A DNA stretch of 64,000 nucleotides from Ichthyobacteriaceae bacterium (GCA_016744755.1 JADGDT010000002.1:12302-76301), one strand, 5' to 3'; shown: positions 2 through 18,902, numbered from the stretch's first letter. Notes: a model not told the origin generated them from the sequence alone. Translations and numbers: made by a program.

Positions 2-637
2 AAACAAACTACAGTCAATGAACTTGACGATGTAAGACTTGAAAACCTAAAGGAACAACCATTTGCAAAGGTTCACAATTTTGATGCTTTACAAATCCCT
101 CACACTTACGATAGAAAGTTTGAAGGAGTAGTTACCAATCCCCCTTTTGGAAGTTTAAGCGAGCCAATATTCTTTGGTAAATTCAAGATAAAAGGACTTG
201 AACAAGCAATGAGCCTAAAAGCATTGCAGACTATGAAAGACAGCGGTAAGTGTGCAATTATTATTGGAGGTCACACTGCATGGGATGAGCAAGGAAGAGT
301 AAAGGCAGGAAAGAATAGAATCTTTCTCAACTACCTATATCACTTTTACAATGTTGAAGATATAATTCCTATAAACGGAAGTAAACTTTACTCCAGACAA
401 GGAACATCTTTCGATACAAGATTGATATTAATTAATGGAGCTAAGGAACATCCAGAGGGAGCTTCGCCATTAAAAAATAAACTACATAGTACAGTTGTAA
501 ATACTCATGAAGAGCTTTGGGAACGTGTAGGACTTGAAAGGTCAAAGTTCAAAGCTGAAAGTTCAAAGGATAAAGACAATCTATTAATTCAAGAACTAGA
601 AGCCGAAGCAATAATCATTATACAACTACAAGGGTAA
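2..637 (+). CDS. N6-adenine DNA methyltransferase, C-terminal part (5' end outside window)
   Basis: The frame is open from base 2. Motif IV 'VVTNPPFGS' is present (NPPF at 137-148). The protein ends in the tail SKFKAESSKDKDNLLIQELEAEAIIIIQLQG, which is shared with the next two proteins. Confidence 0.75.
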   Translation, partial: KQTTVNELDDVRLENLKEQPFAKVHNFDALQIPHTYDRKFEGVVTNPPFGSLSEPIFFGKFKIKGLEQAMSLKALQTMKDSGKCAIIIGGHTAWDEQGRVKAGKNRIFLNYLYHFYNVEDIIPINGSKLYSRQGTSFDTRLILINGAKEHPEGASPLKNKLHSTVVNTHEELWERVGLERSKFKAESSKDKDNLLIQELEAEAIIIIQLQG

Positions 638-676
638 ACACCTAAACAAGTTAACAACTAACCGAATAAACATAAT

Positions 677-3600
677 ATGAAATCAAACATAAAATTCTCA
701 AACAACAATCTTACTATCAAGTTTCAGGAAGAACCAAAGGCACACATTTCCTCAAGACTTATCGAGCTAGGATTCAAAGCTACAACCAATAAAACTTTTG
801 TTCGTACAGAAAAATTAGCACAAAACGAACACGATTATTTACAAGGAATGTTTGGAGTTCAAGGTTTGGGAATGGCATACATACCTGCTGCCGAAAAAGG
901 TTTCATATTAGATACAACAGTACCCGATAGTATGGGTTACGAGATGCATATTGCTATTCGTAAGATTAAAAACAAAATAGGAATGTCGTTATTTGATTAT
1001 GTAGCTGAAAAGCTAGATTACGATAGTGATACACTTGTAAAATCTCTTAGTGCAGAGCAAATAGATGCAGTATCACTAGCGATTTATAACATCGAAAAAA
1101 GAAAGCAAGGAGTTATTATTGGCGATCAGACAGGAATAGGAAAAGGACGTACTGCAGGTGCAATGATTCGCTACGGAGTTAAGCAAGGTTTACAACCAAT
1201 ATTTCTATCAGAAAAGCCTAATCTTTTCACAGATTTATACCGTGATTTAGTTGATATTGATAGTAGTGAACTTGTGCCTTTTATAGTAAATGCAAAAGCT
1301 AGTAAGACAAATATAAAAGACAAAGAGGGTACAACAGTTTATACAGCTCCAGAGAAATCAATCCAAGGAAATATTATAAAATCAAAGAAAGTACCAACGA
1401 GTTACAATTTTGTTTGTGCTACATATTCTCAATTCAACAATCCAAAGAAACCTGCAAAGCAGATGTTCTTGCACAAAGTAGCTGAGAACAATATCATCAT
1501 AATGGACGAATCACACAATGCATCGGGCAGTAGTAATACTGGCGAGTTTATGCAAAGTGTTTTACGAGTTTCTAAAGGTGTTGTTTTCCTATCGGCAACA
1601 TTTGCTAAACGACCAGATAATATGCCAATCTATGCTCAAAAAACTTGCATGAGCGATGCTAATATGAGTAAAGAGGATTTAGTTGATGCAATAGCTTATG
1701 GAGGTGTTGCTTTACAAGAAATAATAGCTTCTCAATTAGTTGCAGAGGGTCAAATGATTAGACGTGAACGTTCGTTTGAGGGAATTGAAGTAAACTATAT
1801 AGAGCTTAAAGAAAAAGCCAAAGAACAAGGAGAAGTAGCCGATAAGGTTACAAAGATAATGCGAGATATTATCAAGTTTCAAGAAGACCATATTAACGGA
1901 GAGATTAAGGTTTTAGATAAAATAGCCGCAGGCGAAGGAAAAGAGGTTATAACAAGAAAAGGTACAGAAAAAGCAGGTGTTGACAATGTTCCTTATTTCT
2001 CGAAAGTATTTAATGTTATCAATCAATTATTGTTCTCAATTAACGCTTCTGATGTAGCAGACCATGCAATATCTAGACTAAAAGAAGGTAAGAAACCTAT
2101 CATTGCTTTTGCATCTACAATGGGTAGTTTTTTGGAAGATATAGCAACTCCAGAAGATGTTATAAATGCTGATTTTTCAACGGTACTAGAGAAAGGATTG
2201 GATAGTGTTTTGCGTTATACAGAAAAGGATATTGACGGAGAAAGTGAGAAAAAGATGTTCAATATTTCTGAAATGTCAGACGAAGCAAGGTTTGATTACA
2301 ACAGTATTATAAGCGAGATAGACCAAGTATCAACAGGCATTACAATTAGTCCTATTGATTTAATTGTTCAGAAAATAAACGAAGCAGGTTTCTCAACTGG
2401 AGAAGTTACAGGGCGTAAACTAAACGTTCAGTACAAATCTACTTCATCAAAAAACACTACTGCACTTGTAATGCGTAGAAAGAAACATAATACATCAGAT
2501 TTATTCAGACAATTTAACGATAATGATATTGATTGTTTGCTTATTAATAAGTCGGGTTCTACAGGTGCATCGGCACATGCCATTGTTACACCAAAAGTTA
2601 CTACAGATGAAGTAAAGCAACGAGTAATGATTATTCTACAACCCGAATTAAACATTAGTACAGAAATTCAGAAAAGAGGAAGAATCAACCGTACTGGGCA
2701 GATAAAGAAACCAATTTACGATTATATAATATCGTCAATTCCTGCTCAAAAGCGTTTCATGATGATGCTGAAAAAGAAGCTAAAATCATTGGATGCCAAT
2801 ACTACATCAAATCAAAAAAACAGTAAATCACAATTAAAGTCAGATGATTTCCTTAACAAGTATGGCGACAAGGTTGTAAGGCTTTACATGTTGGAGAATC
2901 CCGAGCTTAACAAGTTACTTGATAATCCTTTGAAGTTTAAAGGAGAAGATAGCGATGATAAAGCAAACGAGGGCGATGCATCAAAAGTAAGCGGACGTGT
3001 TGCAGTATTGCCAGTAAAAGAGCAAGAAAAGTTTTACACTGATATTATTGAGCTTTACAACGATTATGTTGATTACTTGGTGCAAGCAGATGAGTATGAT
3101 TTAGAAGTTACTGTATTAGACCTAAAAGCCGAAACAAAAGATACTCAAGTTGTAATTGCAGGTAAAGGTGGAAAGTCTGTTTTTGGGAATGATACATTCC
3201 TCGAAAAATGTGAGTGTAACGTACTTAAAAAGCCATACAAGAAAGATGAGCTTGAGAAGATAGTTTCTAAAAGTTTGAACGGTAAAAATGCGGATGATAT
3301 ATCTGAAAAAATCGTTGATACTCACGAACAATTTGTAGATAAATATCTAAAAACAAAATTAGACGAAGGACAAAAGAAGTATGCTAAATTATTGGAAAAT
3401 ATAACCAATGAAAAAGCTTATAAACTTATTGGCAATGATGAAAATAATGTAAAAGAAGATTACATAGAAGAACGCACAGAAGCTATTGAAGAAGCTAAGA
3501 TTGAGTTTGCGAATAAACTTTCTTTACAAGTACAAAATCGTAAATCATACTTAAATGGTTTCTTCAAATATTTCAAAGTTGGACACGGTTATAATTATCC

Positions 3601-4645
3601 ATCATTAGGTTACGACCAATCGAGTAATGAGGGTGCAAAATGTATTTTCTTAGGATTTGATATTAAAGAAAAAAGCAAAAACCCTTATGCTCCATCATCG
3701 GTAAAACTAAAGTTTGCAATTTCTGATAGTAGAAAATATATAACATTGGCTTGTAGTGGCGACACTGCAAAAGAAATTGAGCGTATTCAAGGTCGTAGTT
3801 TCAGACTATCCACAGAACAAAAAGAAACGACAATAGACAATTGGGAAGAAGCAACAAAAGGCTTTACAGGAAGCAGGAGAAACAGATATATAGTTAATGG
3901 AAACATACTTCAAGGTTCGGCAGATTTTGCAGGTAAGCTAGTTAGCTACACTACCAAAGGCAGAGGAGTTAAGAAAGGTATTCTAATGGCTGAATCGTGG
4001 TTGCCAACAGAAGAGAACGGTGTAGGTAATTATGTTGTTGCACCAATTGGCAAGCTCGAAAAACAGATTTTAAGTTTACGTTCTGGTGCAACTATGAGTA
4101 CCGAAAACAAAATGACTTTTGCCAAGCATAATTACGAGGATAAGTTTTTGATAATTATGCCAAAAGCAAAAACACATCAATCAATTTTTACTGATAAAGA
4201 TGTGATTAAGCTTTTGGAAAATAGTAGAGATGGTTTTGAGATGATTTCGGGGTCAATGAAAGCAAATGTTTCTATTGAAAAAATGCCAAAGTTTTTAAAG
4301 TTATTGGGCGATAGATTTAGCGTATCAATGAAACTACCTAAGCATTATTTTGATGAACATTTAAACTCAAAATCAAAGAATACAAGTTCATCTGATGCAC
4401 TAACTGATGATGCTATAAAAATGCTTGAAGATGATACAATTTCATTTGAAAAACGACTTAAAAAGCAAAAGCAGAAAAGCCTGTCTGCCGACAAGTCAGG
4501 CTCGAAGCTGAAAGCTGAAAATTCAAAAGAAAGCGATGAAGATATGTTGATGTTGGAACTAGAAGCAGAATCAATAATTATCATGCAGATGCAAGGAAGT
4601 TACAAGCAAGTAGCAGGATTTACTAATCAAAGAAGGATGTTTTAA
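677..4645 (+). CDS. Strawberry-notch (Sbno)-type superfamily-2 helicase, 1322 aa
   Basis: P-loop 'IIGDQTGIGKGRTAG', DExH box 'IIIMDESHNASG', and a C-terminal helicase block 'LLINKSGSTGASAHA ... ELNISTEIQKRGRINRTGQ' typical of Sbno-like helicases. The C-terminus carries SKLKAENSKESDEDMLMLELEAESIIIMQMQG. Confidence 0.8.
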   Translation: MKSNIKFSNNNLTIKFQEEPKAHISSRLIELGFKATTNKTFVRTEKLAQNEHDYLQGMFGVQGLGMAYIPAAEKGFILDTTVPDSMGYEMHIAIRKIKNKIGMSLFDYVAEKLDYDSDTLVKSLSAEQIDAVSLAIYNIEKRKQGVIIGDQTGIGKGRTAGAMIRYGVKQGLQPIFLSEKPNLFTDLYRDLVDIDSSELVPFIVNAKASKTNIKDKEGTTVYTAPEKSIQGNIIKSKKVPTSYNFVCATYSQFNNPKKPAKQMFLHKVAENNIIIMDESHNASGSSNTGEFMQSVLRVSKGVVFLSATFAKRPDNMPIYAQKTCMSDANMSKEDLVDAIAYGGVALQEIIASQLVAEGQMIRRERSFEGIEVNYIELKEKAKEQGEVADKVTKIMRDIIKFQEDHINGEIKVLDKIAAGEGKEVITRKGTEKAGVDNVPYFSKVFNVINQLLFSINASDVADHAISRLKEGKKPIIAFASTMGSFLEDIATPEDVINADFSTVLEKGLDSVLRYTEKDIDGESEKKMFNISEMSDEARFDYNSIISEIDQVSTGITISPIDLIVQKINEAGFSTGEVTGRKLNVQYKSTSSKNTTALVMRRKKHNTSDLFRQFNDNDIDCLLINKSGSTGASAHAIVTPKVTTDEVKQRVMIILQPELNISTEIQKRGRINRTGQIKKPIYDYIISSIPAQKRFMMMLKKKLKSLDANTTSNQKNSKSQLKSDDFLNKYGDKVVRLYMLENPELNKLLDNPLKFKGEDSDDKANEGDASKVSGRVAVLPVKEQEKFYTDIIELYNDYVDYLVQADEYDLEVTVLDLKAETKDTQVVIAGKGGKSVFGNDTFLEKCECNVLKKPYKKDELEKIVSKSLNGKNADDISEKIVDTHEQFVDKYLKTKLDEGQKKYAKLLENITNEKAYKLIGNDENNVKEDYIEERTEAIEEAKIEFANKLSLQVQNRKSYLNGFFKYFKVGHGYNYPSLGYDQSSNEGAKCIFLGFDIKEKSKNPYAPSSVKLKFAISDSRKYITLACSGDTAKEIERIQGRSFRLSTEQKETTIDNWEEATKGFTGSRRNRYIVNGNILQGSADFAGKLVSYTTKGRGVKKGILMAESWLPTEENGVGNYVVAPIGKLEKQILSLRSGATMSTENKMTFAKHNYEDKFLIIMPKAKTHQSIFTDKDVIKLLENSRDGFEMISGSMKANVSIEKMPKFLKLLGDRFSVSMKLPKHYFDEHLNSKSKNTSSSDALTDDAIKMLEDDTISFEKRLKKQKQKSLSADKSGSKLKAENSKESDEDMLMLELEAESIIIMQMQGSYKQVAGFTNQRRMF

Positions 4646-5781
4646 TGAGTATAGGAACTATAAATTTTGGAAACTCAGGGACTAAGTTCGATAGAGCTTG
4701 GGATAATACTGTTTGGGATGAGAAAGCAAAGGATTATTTAATGCTTGCCAATATCAATACTGAAAATGGAGATATATCTTGGTGGGTTAAGAAGCCAAAC
4801 TCAGAACAGAAAAAGGCGGTAGAAAAATATGCTTCTCAATTTGTTGATGATGATTTGTTGTTATTGGAACTCGAAGCTGAAGCTGTACTTGTGTTACAAA
4901 AACAAGTAGTTACTACAAGTAATAAAATTGACCAGGGAAAAGGTAAAAACAAACATGATTTAATTTATGAAAAGGCAATATCTGAACTCAAATACAATCA
5001 AGAAGATAGCTTTTGTAAAATTATTGAGAATGATTTGAAAACTTCATTATCGGAAGATGAAAAACAGAAGTATGTAGCTATGCTAGTGAATGATACTAGC
5101 AATAAAGTAAAGTTTAAAGCAGGAAATAAGATTCTAAAAGATGAATATAAATTTCAACCAGTTTTTCCTCAATCAATTAAAGTTGCAGAACCAAAGGATT
5201 TAAGTTTAAGAGGAAAAGTTGTTGCTATGGCTAAATATTCAGCCACTAGAAAGGATGAATATCATGATATTTATGGATATGTGTATCATGACATGAGATA
5301 CTTGGTAGCAACAGATGCTCATCAGCTTGTAGTTGTTCATGTAAAAGAAATGAGAGATGATAAATACTATGCTTTTGATGGTGGAATGTCTTTTCCAAAA
5401 GGAACATTTCCAAAATACCGAAGTGTAATACCAAAGAGAATAAAAAACAACAATGTATTAGACTTGAAACAATTGATAGAACAGGTAAAAGGAGTTGAGA
5501 AAGCAAATTCATACTTCAATAAGAAGACTAACATATTACCCGCTGTAAAACTACTATTCAAAGAGAATAGTAAAATGATATTTACAAGTCCACAAATTAC
5601 ACTTAAAGCTTTAATGTCCTTATGGATGACAGGTGTTACAAAGGTTGACATATCAGTTTCAGAAAATCAAAGTATTGTTTTTTATGATGCTGAGAACGAT
5701 AAAACACTAGCAGTTGTAATGGCTTTGATGTCGGGTACAGACACTCTTTTTACACCAATATTAGGAAACGGAATAAACTAA
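4645..5781 (+). CDS. Hypothetical protein with a DnaN (beta sliding clamp)-like C-terminal region
   Basis: The ATG overlaps the helicase stop (TAATG at 4643-4647). The N-terminal ~90 aa end in DDDLLLLELEAEAVLVLQKQ. Later segments 'RYLVATDAHQLVVVH', 'GTFPKYRSVIPK' and 'LAVVMALM' parallel the DnaN signatures VATDGHRLAV, FPDYRRVLPK and YVVMPMRL, which I recalled from E. coli DnaN and did not compute. Confidence 0.5.
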   Translation: MSIGTINFGNSGTKFDRAWDNTVWDEKAKDYLMLANINTENGDISWWVKKPNSEQKKAVEKYASQFVDDDLLLLELEAEAVLVLQKQVVTTSNKIDQGKGKNKHDLIYEKAISELKYNQEDSFCKIIENDLKTSLSEDEKQKYVAMLVNDTSNKVKFKAGNKILKDEYKFQPVFPQSIKVAEPKDLSLRGKVVAMAKYSATRKDEYHDIYGYVYHDMRYLVATDAHQLVVVHVKEMRDDKYYAFDGGMSFPKGTFPKYRSVIPKRIKNNNVLDLKQLIEQVKGVEKANSYFNKKTNILPAVKLLFKENSKMIFTSPQITLKALMSLWMTGVTKVDISVSENQSIVFYDAENDKTLAVVMALMSGTDTLFTPILGNGIN

Positions 5782-5798
5782 CTATAAAAATATATAAG

Positions 5799-6674
5799 AT
5801 GAACTTAACAGTAAATAATTACGAAAGTGCAGTAGAAAATATAGATTTTTCAAAGCTACCAGAAGCTATACGAATGGTTGATGATAAGTGGGGACAATTC
5901 TACAAGTTCTACGGAAAAAGTGATAAGATTACAGAGATGGTTGACAATCATCTAAAAAGTCTAAAACCTTACATCAAGGGAGATAAGAAGGTAATTCTTA
6001 AAAAGACAGTCACTAAACCAAGCAAACCTAAAACGGTTAAAGTTACACCTCATAAAAAGGCAGTAAGCAAAGCTGTGAAATCAAAAATTATAGTAAAGAC
6101 GCAACGCATTGCGTCTCAACGAAAACAAGCTGTCAGAAAGCAAAATGAAGTAGAACTAATGCCTTTGGAAGTACGTTTCATAAAACGATACTTAACACTG
6201 CACGATAAGAGAGTAACAGAAAAACAAGTATCAACTTTCTATAAGGCAATTCAGAAAGCATCGGTTGAAAAAACAATTAGAAAAAGTGGAAAGTATGCTA
6301 ATGAGATAATGAAAATCAGCAAGGATTTATCTCAAACTTATAAAGAGATGAACAACTCATGCAAGTTTGAAATACCAAGTTCGTTACATGTTAAACTTAA
6401 AAATATAACAGATAGTTATGGTGTTACTCCTGCAATTGCATTGATAAAAAGATTCATCAGTTTATATGGTAGAATTACTAAAGAGAAAGCTTCAAGGCTT
6501 CTTAAAAGTATAGAAAACTCAAAGGAAAATGGCAAAGTAAAAAGTTCTGACAATGCTTATAGCAGAGTTGTTGAAATAGAAAATCATCTTGAAAAATATT
6601 TAGATAGTGATAAGTTATTTATAACGGATGTTCAGCTTAACGGATTAAGAGGAATAGCAGGCTTGGGAAAGTAG
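5799..6674 (+). CDS. Lys-rich hypothetical protein (possible DNA-binding)
   Basis: 291-aa ORF with a basic tract KKTVTKPSKPKTVKVTPHKKAVSKAVKSK and two similar helical modules (VRFIKRYLTLHDKRVTEKQVSTFYKAIQKA / IALIKRFISLYGRITKEKASRLLKSIENS). No recognisable family. Confidence 0.4.
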   Translation: MNLTVNNYESAVENIDFSKLPEAIRMVDDKWGQFYKFYGKSDKITEMVDNHLKSLKPYIKGDKKVILKKTVTKPSKPKTVKVTPHKKAVSKAVKSKIIVKTQRIASQRKQAVRKQNEVELMPLEVRFIKRYLTLHDKRVTEKQVSTFYKAIQKASVEKTIRKSGKYANEIMKISKDLSQTYKEMNNSCKFEIPSSLHVKLKNITDSYGVTPAIALIKRFISLYGRITKEKASRLLKSIENSKENGKVKSSDNAYSRVVEIENHLEKYLDSDKLFITDVQLNGLRGIAGLGK

Positions 6675-6712
6675 AAGCCATTACTTCCAACAAACCTAAA
6701 GGACGTAGTGGC

Positions 6713-7444
6713 ATGACTAAAACTAATCAAAATAGCTTTGATAATTTTGAACTTAAACCAACTAATCAATCTAAAGGAAGCGAGTTGCTTAATGGTATTT
6801 CAAATTTATACGATGCTATAAATCAGAAACAAGTTAATCCAAAAATGAAAACACAAAACCATTCTGAAAGGTCTATTTTAACTGATAGTAATGTTGTGTC
6901 AACTTCTCAATTGGCTAAAGCAAATTTTGATACAGTTAAGATTGGAGGAAAGTTCGGTCAATTATTAGGAGAGCCATACAATCCATTTTATATGATGATA
7001 TATGGCGATAGGTTTAACGGTAAAAGTTCTGTAGCAATGTTGCTTGCAGGCACATTGTCAAAGAAGAGAAACAAGGTGCTGTATATCTCAAACGAAGAGG
7101 GAGTAAAAGCTTCACTACAAGAAAAATTAGTAAGGTTAAACATTACAAATCCTATTGATTTTGTGGAAGATTATAACTCTGAAATGTTTGCTAGGTATGA
7201 CGCTGTTTTCATGGATAGCGTGCAAACAATAGGGTTAAAGTCAGAAGATTTTAAACTACTAAAAAGGCAATACCCCCAAACATCTTTTGTGATGGTATTT
7301 AAAGCCAATAGAGATGGAACGAGCAAAGGAGGTACAGATTGGGAACATGATGTTGATGCAATTATGCACATAGAAAAAGGCTCGGCTACAATGGAGAAAA
7401 ACCGTTTTCCGAATGGTAGTAATGGAACTATAAAGATTTTTTAA
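6713..7444 (+). CDS. RecA-superfamily P-loop ATPase (RadA/Sak4/KaiC-like)
   Basis: Walker A 'YGDRFNGKSS', Walker B-like 'AVFMDSV', and 'VMVFKANRDGTSKGGTDWEHDVDAIMHIEKG', which resembles the RadA/DnaB-type C-terminal core. Confidence 0.55.
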   Translation: MTKTNQNSFDNFELKPTNQSKGSELLNGISNLYDAINQKQVNPKMKTQNHSERSILTDSNVVSTSQLAKANFDTVKIGGKFGQLLGEPYNPFYMMIYGDRFNGKSSVAMLLAGTLSKKRNKVLYISNEEGVKASLQEKLVRLNITNPIDFVEDYNSEMFARYDAVFMDSVQTIGLKSEDFKLLKRQYPQTSFVMVFKANRDGTSKGGTDWEHDVDAIMHIEKGSATMEKNRFPNGSNGTIKIF

Positions 7445-7446
7445 TA

Positions 7447-7794
7447 ATGATAGCAAATACAAGTGTAGAATTATTCACAGTAATTATTGGAGGTCTTGGT
7501 ACAATTGGTGTAGGCACAATATCTTATGTTATTAAACGGTCAATTACTACCAATGCGACCAAAGAGAATGTTTTAAATCAAGCTCGTTTATTAGAGAAAG
7601 ATATTCAACATCACGATAAAGAGATATTGGCTTGTAAGTTGAACCAATCGCTAATAGAATCAAGATTTATAGAGTTAAAAGACTCGTTTAAAGACAAGTA
7701 CGTGACAAAGCAAGAATTAAAGGATCAAATGAAATTGATAGATAGCAAGTTAGAAGTAATATTAAAATTCGTAAAGCATGAGCATATTCAGTAA
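7447..7794 (+). CDS. N-terminally membrane-anchored coiled-coil protein (i-spanin-like topology)
   Basis: One N-terminal TM segment (LFTVIIGGLGTIGVGTISYVI) followed by a charged heptad-like helix. It sits immediately upstream of, and overlaps, the holin-like gene. Confidence 0.4.
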   Translation: MIANTSVELFTVIIGGLGTIGVGTISYVIKRSITTNATKENVLNQARLLEKDIQHHDKEILACKLNQSLIESRFIELKDSFKDKYVTKQELKDQMKLIDSKLEVILKFVKHEHIQ

Positions 7795-8173
7795 GCTAAT
7801 AGGAAAAGGAACATCAGAAATTTTAAAAGAAGGAACAAAACTTATAGATGAAATTTTCACTACCAAAGAGGAAAAACTAGAAGCCAAAAAAGAATTGTTC
7901 AGACTAGCAATTACCGACAAAGACAGTGCAAGGAAAATGTATTCTCTAGACAGTACTTTACAGAAAGTATTTGCCATATTTTTCCTTGTATCGTGGGTAT
8001 TTCTTACTGTTTTAATTCTCAACTATTTTGTATTCGAAAAAGTAGATTTATTAGACTGGCAAATTGCATTTGTCAGCACCATTTACGGAGGTATATCTAC
8101 TAAGTTAGGCACAATAGTAGATTTCTTGTTTGGTGGTTCGTCAGCAAGTGAAAAAGTTAACCTTAAAGGATAA
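7778..8173 (+). CDS. Holin-like membrane protein (DUF3154 / 'holin of 3TMs' type)
   Basis: The N-terminus 'MSIFSKLIGKG...LIDEIFTTKEEKLEAKKELFRL' resembles the DUF3154 family N-terminus, and two C-terminal TM segments follow. It overlaps the previous ORF by 17 nt. Confidence 0.5.
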   Translation: MSIFSKLIGKGTSEILKEGTKLIDEIFTTKEEKLEAKKELFRLAITDKDSARKMYSLDSTLQKVFAIFFLVSWVFLTVLILNYFVFEKVDLLDWQIAFVSTIYGGISTKLGTIVDFLFGGSSASEKVNLKG

Positions 8174-8176
8174 ATT

Positions 8177-8629
8177 ATGGAGTTAGTTAATACTAGAATA
8201 GCAAGCGATAATGAAAGTACGTTAGGACTTCTTACAGTAAATGGCAAGAAGTTCTCATTTGTGATTGAAGATGAAGAACGAGAGGTAAAAGTAAAAGGAG
8301 AAACTAGAATACCTGCAGGTAAATATCAAGTTAAATTTAGAAAAGAACTTTCTCCATTAACTGAAAAGTATAGGGCTAAATATCCTTGGTTTACTTATCA
8401 CTTGGAACTGACTAATGTTCCTAACTTTAAATATGTGTATATCCATATCGGAAATTTTGAGAGTAGTACAGATGCTTGTCAAGTTGTTGGGAATAAAGCA
8501 GGGTTTGATGGTAATAACCACTTTAGAAACTTTGAGAGTGTGGATAATTTTAAGCGGTTGTATTTGGTGGTTTCTGAGTCTATTGAACGTGGGGGAGATG
8601 TTTGGTATGAGATTGTTGATACGAATTGA
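8177..8629 (+). CDS. DUF5675-like protein (possible His/Cys cell-wall enzyme, endolysin candidate)
   Basis: 150 aa. 'STLGLLTVNGKKFSFVIEDEER...RIPAGKYQVKF...YIHIGNFESSTDACQVVG' matches my recollection of the DUF5675 pattern (TLG..., IPaGtY, iH.GN....GC). It lies directly after the holin-like gene. Confidence 0.5.
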   Translation: MELVNTRIASDNESTLGLLTVNGKKFSFVIEDEEREVKVKGETRIPAGKYQVKFRKELSPLTEKYRAKYPWFTYHLELTNVPNFKYVYIHIGNFESSTDACQVVGNKAGFDGNNHFRNFESVDNFKRLYLVVSESIERGGDVWYEIVDTN

Positions 8630-8691
8630 TAAATAATGTGTTTAGAATTGAAAAATCCCATTATCAAGGTTAGTTTGATGATGGGATTTTT
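8327..8691 (+). repeat. Direct repeat copy A (3' two-thirds of the DUF5675 gene plus terminator)
   Basis: Aligns by eye with 12333-12686 at roughly four-fifths nucleotide identity, including the stop codon context 'gattgataaata' and the terminator hairpin 'aaatcccattatcaag'. Confidence 0.85.
8653..8691 (+). terminator. Rho-independent terminator of the DUF5675 gene
   Basis: Hairpin aaatcccattatcaa / ttgatgatgggattt followed by a T-run. Confidence 0.7.
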
Positions 8692-8807
8692 GGTGTAATA
8701 ACTTAAATATATTTTTACCAAAAAAAATGAGTTTTCATCTTGATTATATACAATCAAGTCATTACATATGATAAAGAAAGTACTATATTAAGAAAAACTA
8801 ATTACTA

Positions 8808-11800
8808 TTATTCTTTTGACTTATTCGATTTTATGCTTTCAATAAACCTTCCCTTATCTTGTTTTTTTATTTGTCCAATATCATGCTTTATTTCGGACAT
8901 AAGCGTTAAATAAAATTTATCTAGTGAAGGATCATTATTACGTAAATGATAGTAGGACATTATTTTAAGATAACTCAAATCTTTGATATATCTTGATTTA
9001 GCTGTTTTTACAAAACTTTTTATTTTTTCAGGATATTCGCTACCTTTTATGTCTGAGTAAATAAATATGGTCATGAATTTTTCAAACTCTGAGATGTTAA
9101 CTGAATCAATATCTCTTTCCATTTTATCTAGAAGAATTGTTCTTATTTTTTTTGAACCTAACCAATTATACACTACAACCTGATGAATAAGTGGTAGAAT
9201 TTTTATGAATAATGGGAAATCAATATTCTTAGGAAAATGATCTGGCTCTTTTTTATAGTTTTGATAATATTTCAGTAAGGAGTCTCTATATAGCATTAAA
9301 AATGAAATAGAACTAGTAATAACATTACTATAGGAGCTGTTTTTTAATTCAAAACTATCAACATCTTCACTATTCTTAAGAACATTAGCGGAAAGTTTAA
9401 GAACTTTATCTATATGGCTCTGTGTTTTTAAATCTGAAATATCTTTATTTTGAATAGTCTGTTTAACTTGAGTATTTGTTAATGCTTCATCATAAATATC
9501 ATTTTCTTGTTCTGAGGTTAGTTTTGTTGAAGCTCTTTTTACATCAATATTAAACGAAATAGTATCTTTATTATTCTTAGATTCAAGAACAGTATCAATT
9601 TTACTCCAATTATTAATGATATCAGAATTAAACCTTTCAAATGCAATGTTTAATTTTTTTTGAGTAAATTTTAAAATATCTGCATCATCACCTTTTAACC
9701 CAGTATAATAGTTTATTTCTTCTAGATAGTTTAAGTAATTATCATCTTTAAAAACATTTGATTTAAAATCTTTATCGTAATCAAAAAGTAAAGCCAAAAA
9801 GAAATGGAAATAGAAGGCTGATTTAAATTTGATAGTATTATCATCATGATGGAATAATATTCCTCTTTTGATAAAATCTTCTAAAATCATATGTGGTTTT
9901 CCTGTAAACCTCGTTTTCAGATATTGTGTCACATACTCTAATAATTTAGAATACTCAACAGAATAACTCATATCAGGATTTCCATTATCATGCATGAATT
10001 TGGAAATATATGAGAGGAGACGTTTTTTATTTTTGAAACCAAATGTTTCACTGTAGATATTTTCAATTTTAGTCTTTTCGAGTAAATTTTCAATAAATAA
10101 TTCTACAAGGATTGAGTTATTTATTGGTTTTTTTTCTTGTTTTTCAAAAATCCATAAAAATAGAGTTATTGATAGCGGAGTTTTAGGTAATCCAAAGTCT
10201 CCAAAGCTTTTAATCAACTTTTGCATATTATCTTGGAGGTCTACTTCACTGCCAACAAACCATTTTTTTATTAATTGTTTTATTTCATTTGAACCAAAAC
10301 TTTGAATAAAGGCCAATTTAAAATCGAAAATAGGATTATAATCTAAATGCTTAATAGGAATTACATCTTCTAGGGTTTGTGTTGAAGTTGTAATCAGTTG
10401 AATTGTTTGGTTTTGTTTTAAAAAATTATTTAATTTATTAATCTCGTTTGAAATTGTTCCATTGTAATAGAGATCATCAACCAATAATAGTAACTCATTT
10501 GAAGAAATAAAACTATCAATTTCACTACTTGGGATACCTAGGAATTCTTTAACTAACTTTTTAGGATCACTCTTTTTTAGTTCTCCAAATTTTATAAGGA
10601 TAGGTATTTTATTATATTTATTATAATTTTTTGTTAATTCAAGGAACATTTTATCAAGTAGAATTGTTTTGCCAGATTCTTTCATTCCATAAATGAGAAA
10701 ATTAGAATTGTCAATAATAATATCTGTAATAGAATATTTCACTGTACTTTCTTCTTTCAAAGAACCTTGCGGTGTATTCAATATTATTGGATGGACAAAC
10801 AGGTTTTCAATCGTACATTCAATTGATGTATTAGCATCAGACATCAAAATATGGTCATTTAGTCTATCACTGTATCTATTTCCTATATTTATAATTAGTT
10901 CTTGATTAAAATTGAACTTTGTTAAGGATTCATCCCTTGGAATTATAAATTTTCTAATACCATCTTCTGTCCCAACTTCTGTATTAGGAACAAACTTTTT
11001 GTGTTTATCTAGGTATTTTCTAGATACTACTTTGAAGTATTCTTTTGGCTCAAATTCAACTATCGAATAACCATTTTGATGCTTTATATCTGTAGGATTA
11101 TCTGCAATTGTTGATGTAGCAATAGATACAAATAGACTTCCAAATAAATCTTTAATATAATTTGCATCTAATTCATGAACGTGTCCATTTAGAAGTATAT
11201 CATAGTTTCTAGATAATAGAGGTTTTATTGCTTCTCTATCAAAATCTTGTAGAAATTCAATAGGATGATGCGATAATGCAATTTTTATATCACAGTTCTC
11301 AATACTACGTAAAGAATTATCTATCTGTCTTCTACCAATCAGTAATTTTCCTTTATCATTATCATCTTTAGATAACCAAGAACTATTTAAACACGTAACA
11401 CCTATATTATATGATTTTGTTTTAAGAGTGAAACTATTTTCAAAATTTGAAATTTCACCAGAGTAGTTTTCATTCTTATAAAAATCTTTTTGCCAATTTA
11501 GATAATTTTCAATACGACTTAGATGTAAGGATTTCTGGTGATTATTTTTTATAAACTCATCAAGAGAATTTTCATCTTTTAGGTTTGCATTTAGTCCAGC
11601 TTCTGTAACTGCATCAATTTCTTTCCTATTTATATCATGATTACCTGGTACAACAAATATTCTTCCTTTTAAAATTGGATTTAACTCAATTAACTTGTCA
11701 AAAAAAACTGTTTCAAGAATGATGTAAGCTTCCTCTTCATTTTTGAAGCTAGATGCTCCTTTATTTATTAAATCACCAGTAATACATACTACTGTATCAT

Positions 11801-11912
11801 CATTTACTTTTGATTGTAAATCCTTAGCTAGTGCTGAAATTAATTGTTCTTTGTTAAGTGAGATATCTTCATTTTCTAAATGGAAATCTGAGATGTGTAT
11901 TATTTTTAACAT
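8808..11912 (-). CDS. Calcineurin-like metallophosphoesterase fused to a NACHT/STAND NTPase (1034 aa); candidate defence protein
   Basis: The N-terminal MPE motifs occur in order: IHISDFH, ITGDLINKG, VPGNHD, ALSHHP, LNGHVHE. They are followed by Walker A 'LIYGMKESGKTILL', Walker B 'LLLLVDDLYY' and the NACHT-like segments 'FIQSFGSNEIKQLIKKWF' and 'TPLSITLFLWIF'. The C-terminus is helical and repeat-free. Confidence 0.75.
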   Translation of the reverse strand: MLKIIHISDFHLENEDISLNKEQLISALAKDLQSKVNDDTVVCITGDLINKGASSFKNEEEAYIILETVFFDKLIELNPILKGRIFVVPGNHDINRKEIDAVTEAGLNANLKDENSLDEFIKNNHQKSLHLSRIENYLNWQKDFYKNENYSGEISNFENSFTLKTKSYNIGVTCLNSSWLSKDDNDKGKLLIGRRQIDNSLRSIENCDIKIALSHHPIEFLQDFDREAIKPLLSRNYDILLNGHVHELDANYIKDLFGSLFVSIATSTIADNPTDIKHQNGYSIVEFEPKEYFKVVSRKYLDKHKKFVPNTEVGTEDGIRKFIIPRDESLTKFNFNQELIINIGNRYSDRLNDHILMSDANTSIECTIENLFVHPIILNTPQGSLKEESTVKYSITDIIIDNSNFLIYGMKESGKTILLDKMFLELTKNYNKYNKIPILIKFGELKKSDPKKLVKEFLGIPSSEIDSFISSNELLLLVDDLYYNGTISNEINKLNNFLKQNQTIQLITTSTQTLEDVIPIKHLDYNPIFDFKLAFIQSFGSNEIKQLIKKWFVGSEVDLQDNMQKLIKSFGDFGLPKTPLSITLFLWIFEKQEKKPINNSILVELFIENLLEKTKIENIYSETFGFKNKKRLLSYISKFMHDNGNPDMSYSVEYSKLLEYVTQYLKTRFTGKPHMILEDFIKRGILFHHDDNTIKFKSAFYFHFFLALLFDYDKDFKSNVFKDDNYLNYLEEINYYTGLKGDDADILKFTQKKLNIAFERFNSDIINNWSKIDTVLESKNNKDTISFNIDVKRASTKLTSEQENDIYDEALTNTQVKQTIQNKDISDLKTQSHIDKVLKLSANVLKNSEDVDSFELKNSSYSNVITSSISFLMLYRDSLLKYYQNYKKEPDHFPKNIDFPLFIKILPLIHQVVVYNWLGSKKIRTILLDKMERDIDSVNISEFEKFMTIFIYSDIKGSEYPEKIKSFVKTAKSRYIKDLSYLKIMSYYHLRNNDPSLDKFYLTLMSEIKHDIGQIKKQDKGRFIESIKSNKSKE

Positions 11913-12183
11913 GTCATTTTTTTGGGTTTATTATTTTTTAGTTATTGTTAGCTATATTACAGTTAATATGTTATAATTTTTAATAAAGCTCTATACAGTT
12001 ATCAACAAAAAGCAGTTAAACTTTAGAGTTATTATAATTTGGGGGTATCGTTAAATACTCAATAGGGGCAATTCCCCAAAAAAAATGTATTATGAAAGAG
12101 TAATTTAGATAAAAAAAACTTAAATATTATTAACAATTGTTTTTCTATTTATTACGTTATATTGACATAAAAAGTATGGAAAC

Positions 12184-12215
12184 ATGTATGTATGTATGTA
12201 TGTATGTATGTATGC
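12184..12215. repeat. Tetranucleotide microsatellite (ATGT)7 + ATGC
   Basis: Counted by hand: seven perfect ATGT units at 12184-12211, then ATGC. Confidence 0.95.
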
Positions 12216-12332
12216 ACTCTAGTTTGAAAAAAGGAATTGAAAAAGCACTTGTATATACTGTGTTGTAGGCCTATAGGTATTTGTCAAAAATCACTAACAC
12301 AGACTTTATAATAATAGTTGTAAAGACCAAGT

Positions 12333-12622
12333 CAAGTTTAGAAAAGATATAATACCATTGACTGAGAAGTATAGAAAAAACATTCTTGGTTTACTTGGAA
12401 CTGACTGATGTACCTTATTTCTCCTATGTGTATATTCATATTGGTAATTTTGAGAGTAGCACAGATGCTTGTCAGCTTGTTGGTAATAAGGCAGGATTTG
12501 ATGGTAATAACCACTTTAGGAACTTTGAGAGTGTGGATAATTTTAGGCGTTTGTATTTGGTGGTTTGTGAAGCCATTGAGAATGGAGAGAGTGTTTGGTA
12601 TGAGGTTGTGGATGCAGATTGA
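12333..12622 (+). pseudogene. 5'-truncated, frameshifted second copy of the DUF5675-like gene (direct repeat copy B)
   Basis: It encodes ...LELTDVPYFSYVYIHIGNFESSTDACQLVGNKAGFDGNNHFRNFESVDNFRRLYLVVCEAIENGESVWYEVVDAD, homologous to residues ~50-150 of the 8177-8629 product. The first ~50 codons are missing, and a 7-nt deletion (atcactt) relative to copy A breaks the frame near 12385. Confidence 0.8.
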
Positions 12623-12642
12623 TAAATAGTATCTAAAATTGA

Positions 12643-12686
12643 AAATCCCATTATCAAGTATCAACTTGATAATGGGATTATTTTTG
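12643..12686 (+). terminator. Terminator hairpin, second copy
   Basis: aatcccattatcaagt / acttgataatgggatt followed by atttttg. Homologous to the hairpin at 8653-8691. Confidence 0.65.
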
Positions 12687-12731
12687 CCATATAAATAGGA
12701 GTTATATTATACTTGTCTTATTTTATCAATG

Positions 12732-13964
12732 TTAAAAAACAGGGTTGACATCTGATTCTCTTAATTTTTGAGAAAGCATGAGCATATCAGAGCTGATTTT
12801 TTCATTTGTAATACGTGCATAAATTTGAGTGGTTTTTATATTGGTATGACCAAGCATCTTACTAACTGTTTCAATCGGTACACCTTTGGATAAGGTAATG
12901 GTAGTAGCAAACGTATGCCGAGCTAAATGAAAAGTGATATTTTTATCAATGCCGCATACATCTGCAATTTCTTTCAAATAAGCATTTGTCTTCTGGTTGG
13001 TAGGTATTGGTAATAATACTCCATTAGGTAAACCTTTATATTTTTCAAGAATCATCAGTGGAATGTCTAATAAGGGTATAACTGCTTTTACATTTGTTTT
13101 TTGACGTTTGGTAGTTATCCAAGAGTTATTATCGAAGCCTTTACTAATATTTGTTTTCTTGAGTTTTTTAATGTCGATATATGCTAATCCAGTATAACAG
13201 GAAAAAATAAATATATCACGTATTCTTTCTAACCGTTCAGTGTTAAATTCTTTCTCCATTATACGTTGCAGCTCATCATCTGTCAAGTATCCACGATCAA
13301 CTTTTTCCAAAGTAATTTTGTAATTCGCAAATGGGTCAGATATTAGTTTACCATCTTTTTGAGCTGATATAACAACACTTTTAAATTTTTGAATGAATTT
13401 AGCAGATGTATTATAATTGCATCGGCATTGAATACTAAGGTGATTTTCAAACCCAACAATAAAAGAGTGATTAATTTCCCTTAAATCAATATCTGATAAA
13501 TTATGTTCTTCTTTAATATATGAAGCTAAGTGTTTTCTACATACTTCAGCTTTCTGATAAGTAGCTTTTGATTTAGTTATACCTACCAGTTTTTTTAGAT
13601 TGTTATTACTTTCTTCAAAAAGCTCCAATAATAAAAATTGTTCTTGCCCAATTCCTAAGAACGTATTTTTTACTTTTTCTGCAGTAACAACTGTTTCTCT
13701 AACAATAAGGTTGTTGTATGTTTTATGGATAGAGGTCTTTATTTCTTCTAAAAGCGAATTTATTGATTTCGCTTGGGTGCTTCTTCCTTTTGCTTTCCCT
13801 AAATCAACACTCCAATCAGCAGATTTGATAAATTGCTTTGTACTGAACTGAGATAATTTTCCATTAACAGTGATTCTTGCAATAATAGGTGTAGTTCCAT
13901 CTTTTTTGGTGGCGCTCTTTTTAATGTAAAAAAGAACTTTAAATGTACTTCTCATAAACTTCAT
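12732..13964 (-). CDS. int: Tyrosine-type site-specific integrase (Bacteroidota phage/CTn integrase type)
   Basis: The N-terminus 'MRSTFKVLFYIKKSATKKDGTTPIIARITVNG' is typical of Bacteroidota integrases. The catalytic region reads 'HLARHTFAT...LGHTNIKTTQIYAR'. The true start may be the ATG at 13955. Confidence 0.9.
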   Translation of the reverse strand: MKFMRSTFKVLFYIKKSATKKDGTTPIIARITVNGKLSQFSTKQFIKSADWSVDLGKAKGRSTQAKSINSLLEEIKTSIHKTYNNLIVRETVVTAEKVKNTFLGIGQEQFLLLELFEESNNNLKKLVGITKSKATYQKAEVCRKHLASYIKEEHNLSDIDLREINHSFIVGFENHLSIQCRCNYNTSAKFIQKFKSVVISAQKDGKLISDPFANYKITLEKVDRGYLTDDELQRIMEKEFNTERLERIRDIFIFSCYTGLAYIDIKKLKKTNISKGFDNNSWITTKRQKTNVKAVIPLLDIPLMILEKYKGLPNGVLLPIPTNQKTNAYLKEIADVCGIDKNITFHLARHTFATTITLSKGVPIETVSKMLGHTNIKTTQIYARITNEKISSDMLMLSQKLRESDVNPVF

Positions 13965-14156
13965 TTTTTGAATTGTAAAACTATTTTATTATTCTGAAAA
14001 TGAAATATTTAAGGGGCAGACAAATGAAGCCAAGACTAAGCCATTTGAAGACAATTTGTGACCTATTTTACGATATTAATAATAGGGTACGATTTAGCCA
14101 CAAAACTCTGTCTTTTTTTGGCGTTTTAAGAATACACATCAATACAATAAAGACGT

Positions 14157-14192
14157 AAAAAAGCCCCACAATACTAAGTATCGTAGGGCTTT
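14157..14192 (-). terminator. Rho-independent terminator downstream of tRNA-Ser
   Basis: On the minus strand: AAGCCCUACGAUAC-UUAG-GUAUUGUGGGGCUU (14-bp stem with two G-U pairs) followed by UUUUUU. Confidence 0.8.
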
Positions 14193-14227
14193 GTCTTATT
14201 CCTGTCTTTTATTGACATTTTGTTGAG

Positions 14228-14312
14228 CGGAGAAAGAGGGATTCGAACCCCCGGAGGTGTGACCCTCGCTAGTTTTCAAGACTAGTGCATTCGACCACTC
14301 TGCCATTTCTCC
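14228..14312 (-). tRNA. tRNA-Ser (anticodon UGA)
   Basis: The reverse complement reads GGAGAAATGGCAGAGTGGTCGAATGCACTAGTCTTGAAAACTAGCGAGGGTCACACCTCCGGGGGTTCGAATCCCTCTTTCTCCG. It has a 7-bp acceptor stem, anticodon loop CTTGAAA, a long variable arm and T-loop GGTTCGAATCC. Confidence 0.9.
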
Positions 14313-14556
14313 AGTGTTTAGTCTATCAGTTGTTATATTTCCTGATTGCGAGTGCAAATATAATAGCTTTTATTTAATACAAAAGCTTTTTATCAATAAA
14401 AATACATGATACTTTGTAACCTATTTTATTTGAACATTTTACAATAAATATTTTATTCAAACTCATTATTTTGATGCCACAGTGCTTTGTTGATATTCTA
14501 AAAACAAAAATTAATCTACACTACTATATATAAATCCTAATACTTATTTTCGTGAA

Positions 14557-17489
<2,933 letters not shown>

Positions 17490-17669
17490 AATAATATTGG
17501 CGTGTCCCTGCGGGTCAGGTTTTCGGCTATATCTTTTTTTGAATTAAAAAAAGGATGTCGCCTCTACCCTTCACGCTATTGGATAGTTACAAATTAAACT
17601 TTCAAGAGAAAAACAAAGGGATGTAAATAACCTCATCCTAAAAAAACAACTTTACGAATACTCAAAATA

Positions 17670-18902
17670 ATGAAACTAAAACATTTGCTCTTAGCAGTAA
17701 CACTCAACCTGCTTTCAATAACAGGTTTTGCACAAGTTAAAACCGGACTTGAAGTTTTAAAACAACAAAACTTCGAATTACTAAAAGGGAAACGTGTTGG
17801 TTTAATTACCAATCCAACTGGTGTTGATGCCAATTTAAAATCTACTATCGACATTATGTACGAATCGCCTAACGTAAACTTAGTAGGTCTATTTGGACCA
17901 GAGCACGGTGTACGTGGAAACTTTTCGGCAGGCGATCACATAACAGATCAAAAAGATCCTAAAACAGGAATTCAGGTTTTTTCACTGTATGGTAGCAATA
18001 GGAAGCCATCAAAAGAAATGTTAAAAGGGATTGATGTAATGGTTTATGATATTCAGGATGTTGGAGTTAGATCTTACACTTACATAAGCACACTGGGAAT
18101 GGTAATGGAAGCTTGTGCCGAAAACAACGTAGAAGTAATAGTTTTAGACAGACCAAACCCTATTGGCGGTAACAAGGTTGAAGGTGGTTTGGTTGGAGAT
18201 AAATACATTTCTTTTGTTAGCCAATATCCTATCCCTTACGTTTATGGACTTACACCTGGAGAGTTTGCAGTCTACATCAACGAAACTGGATTATTGAAAA
18301 ACAAAGTAAAATGCAATCTTAAAGTTGTAGAAATGAAAGGTTGGAAACGAAATATGCTTTTTAAAGATACAGGTCTTTATTGGGTTCCAACATCACCACA
18401 CATCCCTCGATGGAATTCATCGTTATACTATGCCATGACAGGTATTTTTGGAGAGATAAATCCTAGTATGGTTGGTATAGGATACACTTTACCTTTCGAA
18501 GTTTACATGACTACTTTTACCGATGCCGATAAACTTACCGATGCAATGAATACTGAAAACCTCAAAGGTGTAATTTTTCGTCCGCTTCACTACAAGCCAT
18601 ACTACTCAAACAACAAAGGGAACGAACTTTCTGGGATGCAAATTTACATTACCGATTACGAGAAAGTTAATCTTACAAAAATTCAGTTTAAGTTAATTGA
18701 GATTGCTCATAAACTCTACCCTGATCACGAAATATTCAAATTCAACTCCAAGCGACACAACATGTTCGACAAGGTTATAGGAAGTAATAAAATCCGAATA
18801 GAATTTAGCAAAAACTATCTTTACTCCGACATTAAAAAGTTGTGGGAAGAACCAGCTGAGGAGTTTAAAGAGGAATCTAAAAAATATTATTTGTACAAGT
18901 AG
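17670..18902 (+). CDS. DUF1343 family protein (NamZ-like exo-beta-N-acetylmuramidase)
   Basis: Signal peptide, then 'GKRVGLITNPTGVD...LFGPEHG', typical of DUF1343. Confidence 0.7.
   Translation: MKLKHLLLAVTLNLLSITGFAQVKTGLEVLKQQNFELLKGKRVGLITNPTGVDANLKSTIDIMYESPNVNLVGLFGPEHGVRGNFSAGDHITDQKDPKTGIQVFSLYGSNRKPSKEMLKGIDVMVYDIQDVGVRSYTYISTLGMVMEACAENNVEVIVLDRPNPIGGNKVEGGLVGDKYISFVSQYPIPYVYGLTPGEFAVYINETGLLKNKVKCNLKVVEMKGWKRNMLFKDTGLYWVPTSPHIPRWNSSLYYAMTGIFGEINPSMVGIGYTLPFEVYMTTFTDADKLTDAMNTENLKGVIFRPLHYKPYYSNNKGNELSGMQIYITDYEKVNLTKIQFKLIEIAHKLYPDHEIFKFNSKRHNMFDKVIGSNKIRIEFSKNYLYSDIKKLWEEPAEEFKEESKKYYLYK

Follow-up and report, generated by a model that had tools for sequence, protein, structure and literature searches.

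A peptide shared by three neighbouring genes

We analysed a stretch of 64,000 nucleotides from an Ichthyobacteriaceae bacterium (GCA_016744755.1, JADGDT010000002.1:12302-76301; hereafter, the window), which opens inside a virus-like element. The first genes encode, in order, an N6-adenine-type DNA methyltransferase (MTase), a strawberry-notch (Sno)-type helicase, an accessory protein of 378 amino acids (aa), a protein of 291 aa that we call protein X, and a RecA-superfamily ATPase (Table 1). The first three of these proteins carry the same short peptide, LELEAE[AS]-hhhh-Q-x-Q (h, hydrophobic), referred to here as the tag, or as the tail where it lies at a C-terminus. This tag and its possible partner, the N-terminal segment of protein X, are the subject of the analysis. 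Related contigs and loci are numbered from L001.

The MTase gene starts upstream of the window; the full-length protein, of 343 aa, is encoded on L001, a metagenome contig identical to that of the window. The protein scored 15.8-16.9 bits against Pfam N6_Mtase, which is under the cut-off of 20.4; an NPPF motif is visible in its sequence, and it matched PADLOC MTase_II at 4.7e-5. Both the MTase and the helicase matched phrog_14770, a 3427-position PHROG of giant polyvalent proteins, at positions 1047-1139 (E 1.3e-9) and 1468-2008 (E 6.5e-50), respectively. Since the two proteins match this single polyvalent PHROG colinearly, they are, as judged from sequence, a split DarB-like module.

Table 1 Features of the tagged module and of the right end of the element, in window coordinates
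Feature	Position	Strand	Evidence or remarks
N6-adenine-type DNA methyltransferase, C-terminal 211 codons	2..637	+	Full open reading frame on L001 8930-9961
K/S/D-rich linker before tail copy 1	542-589	+	Translation
Tail copy 1, QELEAEAIIIIQLQ	590..631	+	31.9 bits; followed by G and the stop codon
Strawberry-notch (Sno)-type helicase, 1322 aa	677..4645	+	AAA_34 4e-22, Helicase_C_4 3.2e-20, ResIII 3.7e-8
Tail copy 2, LELEAESIIIMQMQ	4553..4594	+	35.8 bits; disordered linker before, 16 residues after
378-aa accessory protein	4645..5781	+	N-terminal module, tag, variable linker, conserved C-terminal domain
Tail copy 3, LELEAEAVLVLQKQ	4864..4905	+	35.1 bits; internal, residues 74-87 of the 378-aa protein
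Protein X, 291 aa	5799..6674	+	N-terminal domain, basic K/P/S/T linker, conserved helical domain
Predicted socket, protein X residues ~11-60, core ...VDDKWGQFYKFYGKSDKITEM...	5829..5978	+	Net charge flips opposite to tails
RecA-superfamily ATPase, 243 aa	6713..7444	+	phrog_6891 1.9e-23; AAA_24 and RadA/KaiC weak
Metallophosphoesterase-STAND NTPase, 1034 aa	8808-11912	-	Calcineurin-like phosphoesterase 5.9e-15, nSTAND NTPase4
Tyrosine integrase	12732-13964	-	Phage_integrase, Arm-DNA-bind_5 and SAM_5 domains
tRNA-Ser(TGA)	14227-14312	-	Beside the integrase

The tag occurred exactly three times in a six-frame scan of the whole window, and the pattern ELE[AS]E[AS] followed by hhhh-Q-x-Q matched only at 593-631, 4556-4594, and 4864-4905. 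A first-pass annotation of this DNA had quoted the peptides encoded at 542-637, 4502-4645, and 4840-4905, with which our translations agree exactly, and had described their similarity as the only link among the three proteins. Indeed, no other significant similarity connects them, and the tags formed the top high-scoring segment pair of every pairwise BLASTP comparison. MTase residues 313-343 aligned with helicase residues 1276-1307 (62.5% identity over 32 aa, E 3.6e-7), while residues 69-87 and 68-87 of the 378-aa protein aligned with MTase residues 324-342 and helicase residues 1287-1306, respectively (~55-58% identity over 19-20 aa in both cases). The likeness of about 30 aa between the MTase and the helicase, said to be visible in the DNA as well, was also borne out, as the two tails agree at 18/32 aa and 60/93 nucleotides. 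This nucleotide likeness is real but secondary to the peptide likeness, because 8 of the 21 differing codons are synonymous.

A tag profile was searched against all stop-to-stop open reading frames (ORFs) of at least 40 aa in six frames over ~155 kb (the window, L001, L003, L004, and L005). True copies scored 24-36 bits, one degenerate genuine copy scored 13 bits, and all other ORFs remained below 4 bits. The motif is too short for database-wide significance: a 22-position profile returned five matches at E <= 1e-3 among 1.84 billion representatives, all from the same families, and the matches in an index of 5.8 billion proteins were shorter than 100 aa and were fragments of these families: tails from the MTase, the helicase, and the zincin protein, plus a fragment with an MTase N-terminal domain. 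A degenerate DNA pattern for the basic form of the motif, which is described below, revealed nothing in IMG/VR beyond two contigs that were already known.

An AlphaFold2 model of the C-terminal 400 residues of the helicase (mean predicted local distance difference test score, pLDDT, of 78) shows a folded domain, then a linker predicted to be disordered (pLDDT 37), and finally a helix that stands alone at residues 1285-1312; this helix covers the tag and has a pLDDT of up to 80. The linkers that precede the tags are of low complexity and rich in K, S, D, and N. In tails that use other charge dialects (see below), a 7-residue repeat is found with hydrophobic residues at positions a, c, e, and g, and the hydrophobic moment is maximal near 154 degrees, i.e., at the 7/3 harmonic. 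The moment at 100 degrees was low (0.06-0.27) in all tails tested, including the three from the window, and a classical amphipathic helix or membrane-active peptide was rejected for this reason. The 7/3 harmonic together with the weak 100-degree moment suggests that the tag may be a helix that has charged stripes and two seams of hydrophobic residues and that packs between other helices. The prohead-protease sites of T4 (L/I-x-E) and phiKZ (S/A/G-x-E) fit the tag poorly.

Conservation and charge dialects in related elements

The related loci comprised 80 genome loci and the contigs L003, L004, L011, and L012 (84 in total), and the orders covered were Marinilabiliales, Cytophagales, Chitinophagales, and Flavobacteriales, all within the Bacteroidota. 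A tail of the same kind ends nearly all of 120 helicase homologs and is present at the end of ~75/84 related loci, the remainder being truncated genes or contig ends. The concern, raised in the first-pass annotation, that the motif could be a low-complexity helix of a generic kind, widespread among unrelated chromosomal proteins, was not substantiated, since this tail closes almost all complete helicases and MTase-helicase fusions. Only one relative, L055 (9953-13732), has a complete helicase ORF that ends in ITVSRNMFE and the stop codon, without a tail; the charge of its protein X segment (see below) is about -2, and it may represent a decaying copy or a natural tail-less variant.

Each lineage has its own dialect of the tail, in which the charged positions are uniformly acidic (LELEAEALELELELL) or uniformly basic (LKLVKLRAKAILIKQKQ). 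The IMG/VR contigs L003 and L004 encode helicases that are 72% identical to that of the window and share its tail pattern with the charges inverted (helicase tail ...LKLVKLRAKAILIKQKQ...; MTase tail ...LSLVKLRAKAILLKQKQ...). In L004, further tags terminate a 772-aa zincin/LPD1 protein (HEWGH motif; LPD1 match at 3.4e-18) and a C5-methylase-like protein, and another separates the two domains of an MTase fusion of 603 aa; the motif likewise lies between two domains in proteins of 598-657 aa from relatives. Further dialects are LELEAEALALELELLAA, ELELEALALELELELLNFAA, and LELEAEALELELELLSF, each followed by the stop codon, and basic mirror-image tails include LKLKAKALKLKLQLLKFAA (L083), LKLKANALKLKLELLSFA (L061), and LKLKLKLQKAKLALLNI (L012), also followed by the stop codon, as well as KARLRLLKLKLKL (L056). 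The internal tag of the 378-aa protein is acidic and invariant in all four homologs, while its flanks vary.

Position and sign of the tag were recorded in the 37 loci with the Q-x-Q dialect, where 87 copies were counted. Most of these (67) are C-terminal, no more than 25 residues from the end of the protein; another 18 are internal between domains, and the 2 N-terminal copies belong to a two-domain protein that is split just before the tag. A single dialect is used within a genome across the N6-methylase, the Sno-type helicase, the zincin/LPD1 protein, the C5-methylase-like protein, and the 378-aa protein, and acidic and basic tags were mixed in 0/37 of these loci. Where the MTase and the helicase are split, each bears one tag (the element in the window, L003, L012, and L095), and fused MTase-helicases have a single one (L011, L057-L094). 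Bacteroides phage BS-TP4 (L005, PQ571277.1) encodes gp3 (1511-17686), a single ORF of 5391 aa that adjoins the portal gene and whose helicase region is 32% identical to the window helicase; neither a tag nor an X-like domain was found in it.

The residue that follows Q-x-Q is variable (G, H, L, Y, A, V, or K). Copies of the tag within a genome use different synonymous codons, such as TTG/CTC for Leu and AGA/CGG for Arg; selection therefore acts on the peptide, and the conserved object is the peptide rather than a DNA repeat. Taken together, the peptide is almost certainly a selected, shared, and modular interaction tag.

Some genomes carry 3-4 copies of the element family, all of them basic: L015, L023, L038, and L058 lie in one genome (OY763044.2), with L038 and L058 almost head to head within ~23 kb, and L020-L022 lie in Saccharicrinis aurantiacus. 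Co-resident elements therefore do not obviously use orthogonal dialects. In the helicase C-termini of L003 and L004, a second mini-motif follows the tag (...Q-L-[KR]-A-V-A-G-[LIF](G...)), and the window helicase has SYKQVAGF at 4598-4621; this mini-motif may be a hinge, a processing site, or a second contact.

Charge covariation with protein X and a proposed docking model

All tags of a genome have like charges, which makes them poor partners for each other, and a complementary change was therefore sought elsewhere. Seventeen orthologue sets were compared between the element in the window (acidic) and L003/L004 (basic), taking the net-charge difference per 14-residue window. The tails differ by -8 to -10, and the largest opposite change among the 17 sets, +8, was located at residues ~27-45 of protein X, which read KWGQFYKFYGKSDK in the window and EFDAFADFYSDDKD in L003/L004. 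When the net charge of the tail core was compared with that of the N-terminal segment of protein X in 68 loci, the two classes were fully separated: basic tails occur with X segments of -5 to -9, and acidic tails with segments of -1 to +2 (raw r -0.95, n=68). The signal is confined to residues ~11-60 of protein X. The conserved domain does not show it, and the basic linker was rejected as a receptor because its charge correlates positively with tail charge.

Independent contrasts were then computed on a neighbor-joining tree of the helicase core, with 221 helicase windows and the remainder of protein X as controls. The contrast r was -0.69 (n=67, p ~7e-11), which is a stronger correlation than in any of the 221 helicase windows (minimum -0.52, median 0.02) or in the rest of protein X (-0.12 to +0.17). 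By inspection, the tail-sign flips involve the acidic Q-x-Q clade (the element in the window and L095-L097) and the basic lineages L083, L061, L053, L012, and L056, and the X segment flips at every one of them. In sister pairs, the segment has a charge of -7 in L083 and 0 in L084, of -9 in L061 and -1 in L074, and of +1 in the window and -6 in L003. Lineages other than the element in the window, L003, and L004 count as replication, since they were not used to find the segment. In a prospective test, the loci of P0004 and P0003, two homologs of the 378-aa protein, were found to encode acidic MTase/helicase tails and an X segment of +1.

Where a locus extends far enough downstream of the helicase, the gene of protein X follows in practically all cases. 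It has no match in Pfam, NCBIfam, PADLOC, or PDB. Protein X and the ATPase are separate genes in the window and in the Marinilabiliales relatives, and form one protein of 480-720 aa in most other lineages (for example, L011 14741-16516 and L012 13758-15911). The mini-motif noted after the helicase tag is also placed at the C-terminus of protein X (6636-6671), which reads ...QLNGLRGIAGLGK before the stop codon, and the same position is the ATPase junction where the two proteins are fused. Two other arrangements were observed: in L056, protein X stands behind a JAB/RadC-type domain, and in L018 it is joined to a piece from the N-terminus of the zincin protein.

The first-pass annotation had proposed a docking or assembly peptide that takes the place of a DarB-type fusion. 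The core of this idea is strongly supported by the comparisons, in which the tag is conserved in more than 100 homologs, occurs once per split polypeptide and singly on fusions, is absent from BS-TP4 gp3, and follows one charge dialect per genome; that the tails hold one another is improbable, as they are uniformly like-charged within a genome. Because the charge of the X segment flips in the opposite sense whenever the tails flip, protein X and the RecA-like ATPase are likely to be the common socket. We therefore favor, with a probability of roughly 0.55, a model in which the tag plugs cargo enzymes onto a hub made of protein X and the ATPase, the binding being predicted from sequence.

In this docking model, the tag would be a modular helix of ~20 residues, with the 7-residue repeat (h-c-h-c-A-c-A)(h...) and flexible linkers on either side, and the socket would be formed by the N-terminal ~50-60 residues of protein X, whose charge is complementary to that of the tags and to which these are predicted to bind. 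The MTase, the helicase, and the 378-aa protein, joined in relatives by the zincin/LPD1 and C5-methylase-like proteins, would all be held by a single hub, in which protein X would work with the RecA-like ATPase or is fused to it. Given the strongly basic linker of protein X and the RecA-like ATPase, the hub is plausibly oligomeric and DNA-associated. The outcome would be a non-covalent counterpart of a fused DarB-type polyvalent protein, with a putative role in anti-restriction, and modules could easily be added or swapped, e.g., the 378-aa gene, which is present in the window and absent from the basic-dialect relatives L003 and L004. It is possible, though we propose this more tentatively than the docking itself, that many virus-like elements of Bacteroidota share a plug-and-socket system, coded by charge and not described before, in which a dedicated hub would recruit interchangeable anti-defense or DNA-modifying enzymes through the tag and dialects would have switched repeatedly together with the socket. 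Such switching perhaps keeps co-resident or competing elements from stealing each other's enzymes.

Several observations weigh against the docking model. Helicase control windows reach a raw |r| of up to 0.83 from phylogeny alone, which indicates that the raw correlation is inflated by shared ancestry; it was set aside as proof, and the argument therefore rests on the independent contrasts and the sister-lineage flips. One helicase control window also reaches a contrast r of -0.52, and independent flips are few, with at least 3 tail-sign changes by parsimony on the midpoint-rooted tree and 5-6 by inspection. It should be noted that the complementarity is asymmetric, as basic tails occur with a strongly acidic segment and acidic tails with a segment that is neutral to slightly basic, and that the covariation is seen in net charge and not in resolved residue pairs. 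A further possibility is that tag and X segment each track a third component, for example DNA or the inside of the capsid, rather than one another.

Among the other explanations, the one with the most in its favor, although we consider it unlikely, is that the tag is a virion-packaging (capsid-targeting) signal, by which the cargo would be co-injected with the DNA, with protein X possibly acting as an adaptor. The first-pass annotation had offered a targeting signal, for packaging or for export, as its second possibility, and the comparisons speak neither for nor against it. The MTase and Sno helicase match both phrog_14770 and the architecture of polyvalent/DarB proteins, for which packaging is predicted, and the tagged genes come last in a run of co-oriented genes that resemble structural and lysis genes. 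A targeting signal would have to be present once on every polypeptide, as the tag is, and the packaging reading is compatible with the docking model. In phage P1, the DarB protein is directed to the capsid by a short sequence, its N-terminal 30 residues, which is sufficient (PMC9024508). Capsid-targeting sequences such as this one and that of T4 IPIII resemble the tag in being short transferable peptides that decide the destination of a protein, and P1 DarB is itself a DarB-like carrier; a tag shared by several cargo proteins had been sought there, but no consensus common to the P1 Dar proteins was found (PMC9024508). These known signals are N-terminal, whereas the tag is mostly C-terminal (67/87), and no charge dialects or co-varying receptor have been described for them. 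Moreover, in the charge scan, which covered ~10-13 kb upstream for this element, a region in which capsid and portal genes were not identified, none of the structural proteins had a segment whose flip against the tails matched that of protein X in strength, and BS-TP4 gp3, which adjoins the portal gene, lacks the tag. Less probable still is a hetero-oligomeric coiled coil in which the tails bind one another without a separate receptor. The heptad-like 7-residue periodicity and the two hydrophobic seams are typical of helices in multi-helix bundles, and all partners in a genome use the same dialect; however, equal charge on all copies (all E or all K/R) disfavors mutual pairing, heterospecific coiled coils showing E/K complementarity instead. 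Fused MTase-helicases retain one tail without a split partner to zip to, and tail-tail pairing leaves the compensating flip in protein X unexplained.

We regard as improbable the view that the motif does no docking and is an inter-domain linker, or a processing site cleaved for instance by the zincin, left over from an ancestral fused polyvalent protein. It would agree with the position of the motif between two domains in the 598-657-aa proteins, with the zincin/LPD1 protein being part of the module in relatives, and with the proposal that polyvalent proteins are autoprocessed (PMC5512222). At the extreme C-terminus, where 67/87 copies lie, only 0-25 residues would be left to cleave off, though, and the residue after Q-x-Q is not conserved. 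No zincin gene was found in the region of the window's element that was covered, and concerted charge flips that covary with protein X are unexpected for a cleavage site. A low-complexity helix arising by chance, or a repeat at the DNA level (a recombination or gene-conversion tract), has a negligible probability. The tag is rich in E, L, A, and I, and the MTase and helicase copies are alike in DNA, but the profile scores are bimodal and the motif is conserved across orders of Bacteroidota. A DNA repeat or gene conversion was rejected on account of the synonymous differences between copies and the different codons used in L003 and L004.

If the docking model holds, it would explain how phages can split a giant polyvalent anti-restriction protein into genes without losing integration, and new effector modules could join by acquiring the tag, as the 378-aa, zincin, or C5-methylase proteins may have done. 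It gives a candidate role to two uncharacterized genes, those of protein X and its ATPase, which are found with the helicase in practically all loci that reach far enough. Concerted changes from E to K that recur and are compensated in the partner would be an unusually clean natural code of electrostatic specificity, and the tags could serve as orthogonal parts for protein assembly. Should the hub serve as an adaptor for packaging, these particles would have a natural cargo-loading peptide in the tag.

No description of the tail was found in targeted literature searches. According to two studies, the docking domains of polyketide synthases and nonribosomal peptide synthetases (PKS/NRPS) are short terminal helices whose partner specificity follows an electrostatic code detectable by co-evolution (PMC9113145, PMC1994986). 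As portrayed there, they are, like the tag as predicted, short, mostly helical, located at protein ends, and separated from catalytic domains by linkers, and they hold separately encoded subunits of multi-enzymes together, as is proposed for the tag. An element at the C-terminus of one protein pairs with an N-terminal one in another, often the product of the following gene, an arrangement similar to that proposed for the tag and protein X, and complementary, co-evolving charges are found in PKS/NRPS pairs and, statistically, in the tag and protein X. These domains form a linear chain of distinct pairs, whereas the tag would follow a hub-and-spoke design with many cargo proteins and one socket. 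The tag, unlike them, can also be internal or N-terminal and belongs to a viral anti-restriction/DNA-modification context, and sequence homology between the two was neither found nor to be expected. PKS/NRPS docking domains thus appear to be the closest functional analogues of the tag.

Recruitment of many unrelated DNA enzymes, by one short terminal peptide, to a single hub that is oligomeric and associated with DNA is known from the beta-clamp-binding motif QL[SD]LF and from the acidic C-terminal tip of the single-stranded DNA-binding protein SSB. The tag differs from these peptides in sequence, is longer and predicted to be helical, and its putative socket is encoded by the element rather than being the replisome clamp or SSB. 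In cohesin-dockerin cellulosomes, and with the encapsulation peptides of microcompartments and encapsulins, a common tag on flexible linkers recruits enzymes to a scaffold or shell. The tag has no homology to either of these, dockerins being folded Ca-binding domains and encapsulation peptides being directed to protein shells.

With polyvalent/DarB-type proteins (Iyer et al. 2017, PMC5512222), the tagged module shares the Sno/SNF2-type helicase, a probable N6-MTase, and, in relatives, the zincin peptidase and LPD1. Both are borne by phages or prophages, and the module in the window matches the polyvalent PHROG 14770. Polyvalent proteins combine many effector domains in one polypeptide, whereas the window has separate ORFs with a common tag, and its relatives range from split to fused. 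Since its MTase, helicase, and 378-aa protein are separate ORFs, the module in the window would work like a polyvalent protein but is not one. The words 'linker' and 'coiled' are absent from Iyer et al. 2017 (PMC5512222) in a term search.

Gene neighborhood and boundaries of the element

The 378-aa protein had been labeled clamp-like in the first-pass annotation. Its match to DnaN (TIGR00663) reached 15.3 bits over 44 residues, against a cut-off of 137.65, and no Pfam clamp match was detected. The AlphaFold2 model of this protein (mean pLDDT 43) was too poor for a fold search. Three of its four homologs (P0001-P0003) possess an extra conserved N-terminal domain of ~100 residues (MKDGAISSLFI..KGWHC..PKSQG), which is missing from the window's protein and from P0004, while the tag and the C-terminal domain are unchanged. 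No match to the PADLOC defense library was found for the helicase, protein X, or the 378-aa protein.

The ATPase gene is followed by two small proteins without a family match and by a DUF5675 protein. Between this last element gene and the integrase lies the 1034-aa metallophosphoesterase-STAND protein, which looks like a defense-type cargo gene; in L095 and L096, the integrase comes directly after the DUF5675 gene. The integrase and the tRNA-Ser(TGA) probably mark the right boundary and the attachment site of the element. With these at the element end, the three tagged proteins lie close to the right-hand end of a virus-like element integrated in a low-GC (31%) Bacteroidota host.

Upstream, L001 carries co-oriented and mostly unannotatable genes, including a lysozyme domain of the virion-associated type and fibre-like proteins. 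This lysozyme domain was the only match among the presumed structural proteins upstream (L001 1-8300; L013/L014 6.7-17 kb), 9/10 of which were without a counterpart in PHROG; genes for a portal, a terminase, or a capsid were not recognized in ~25 kb of the IMG/VR relatives. Three consecutive proteins of 381, 61, and 129 aa (L001 7158-8921) begin with the same N-terminal peptide of ~25 residues (..IK.F.G..PP.LKKGE.A.DG..YLG). In L003/L004, the same peptide heads an 833-aa protein with tandem repeats of ~45 aa (L003 5974-8475), and it is probably an anchor of alternative fibre or spike proteins.

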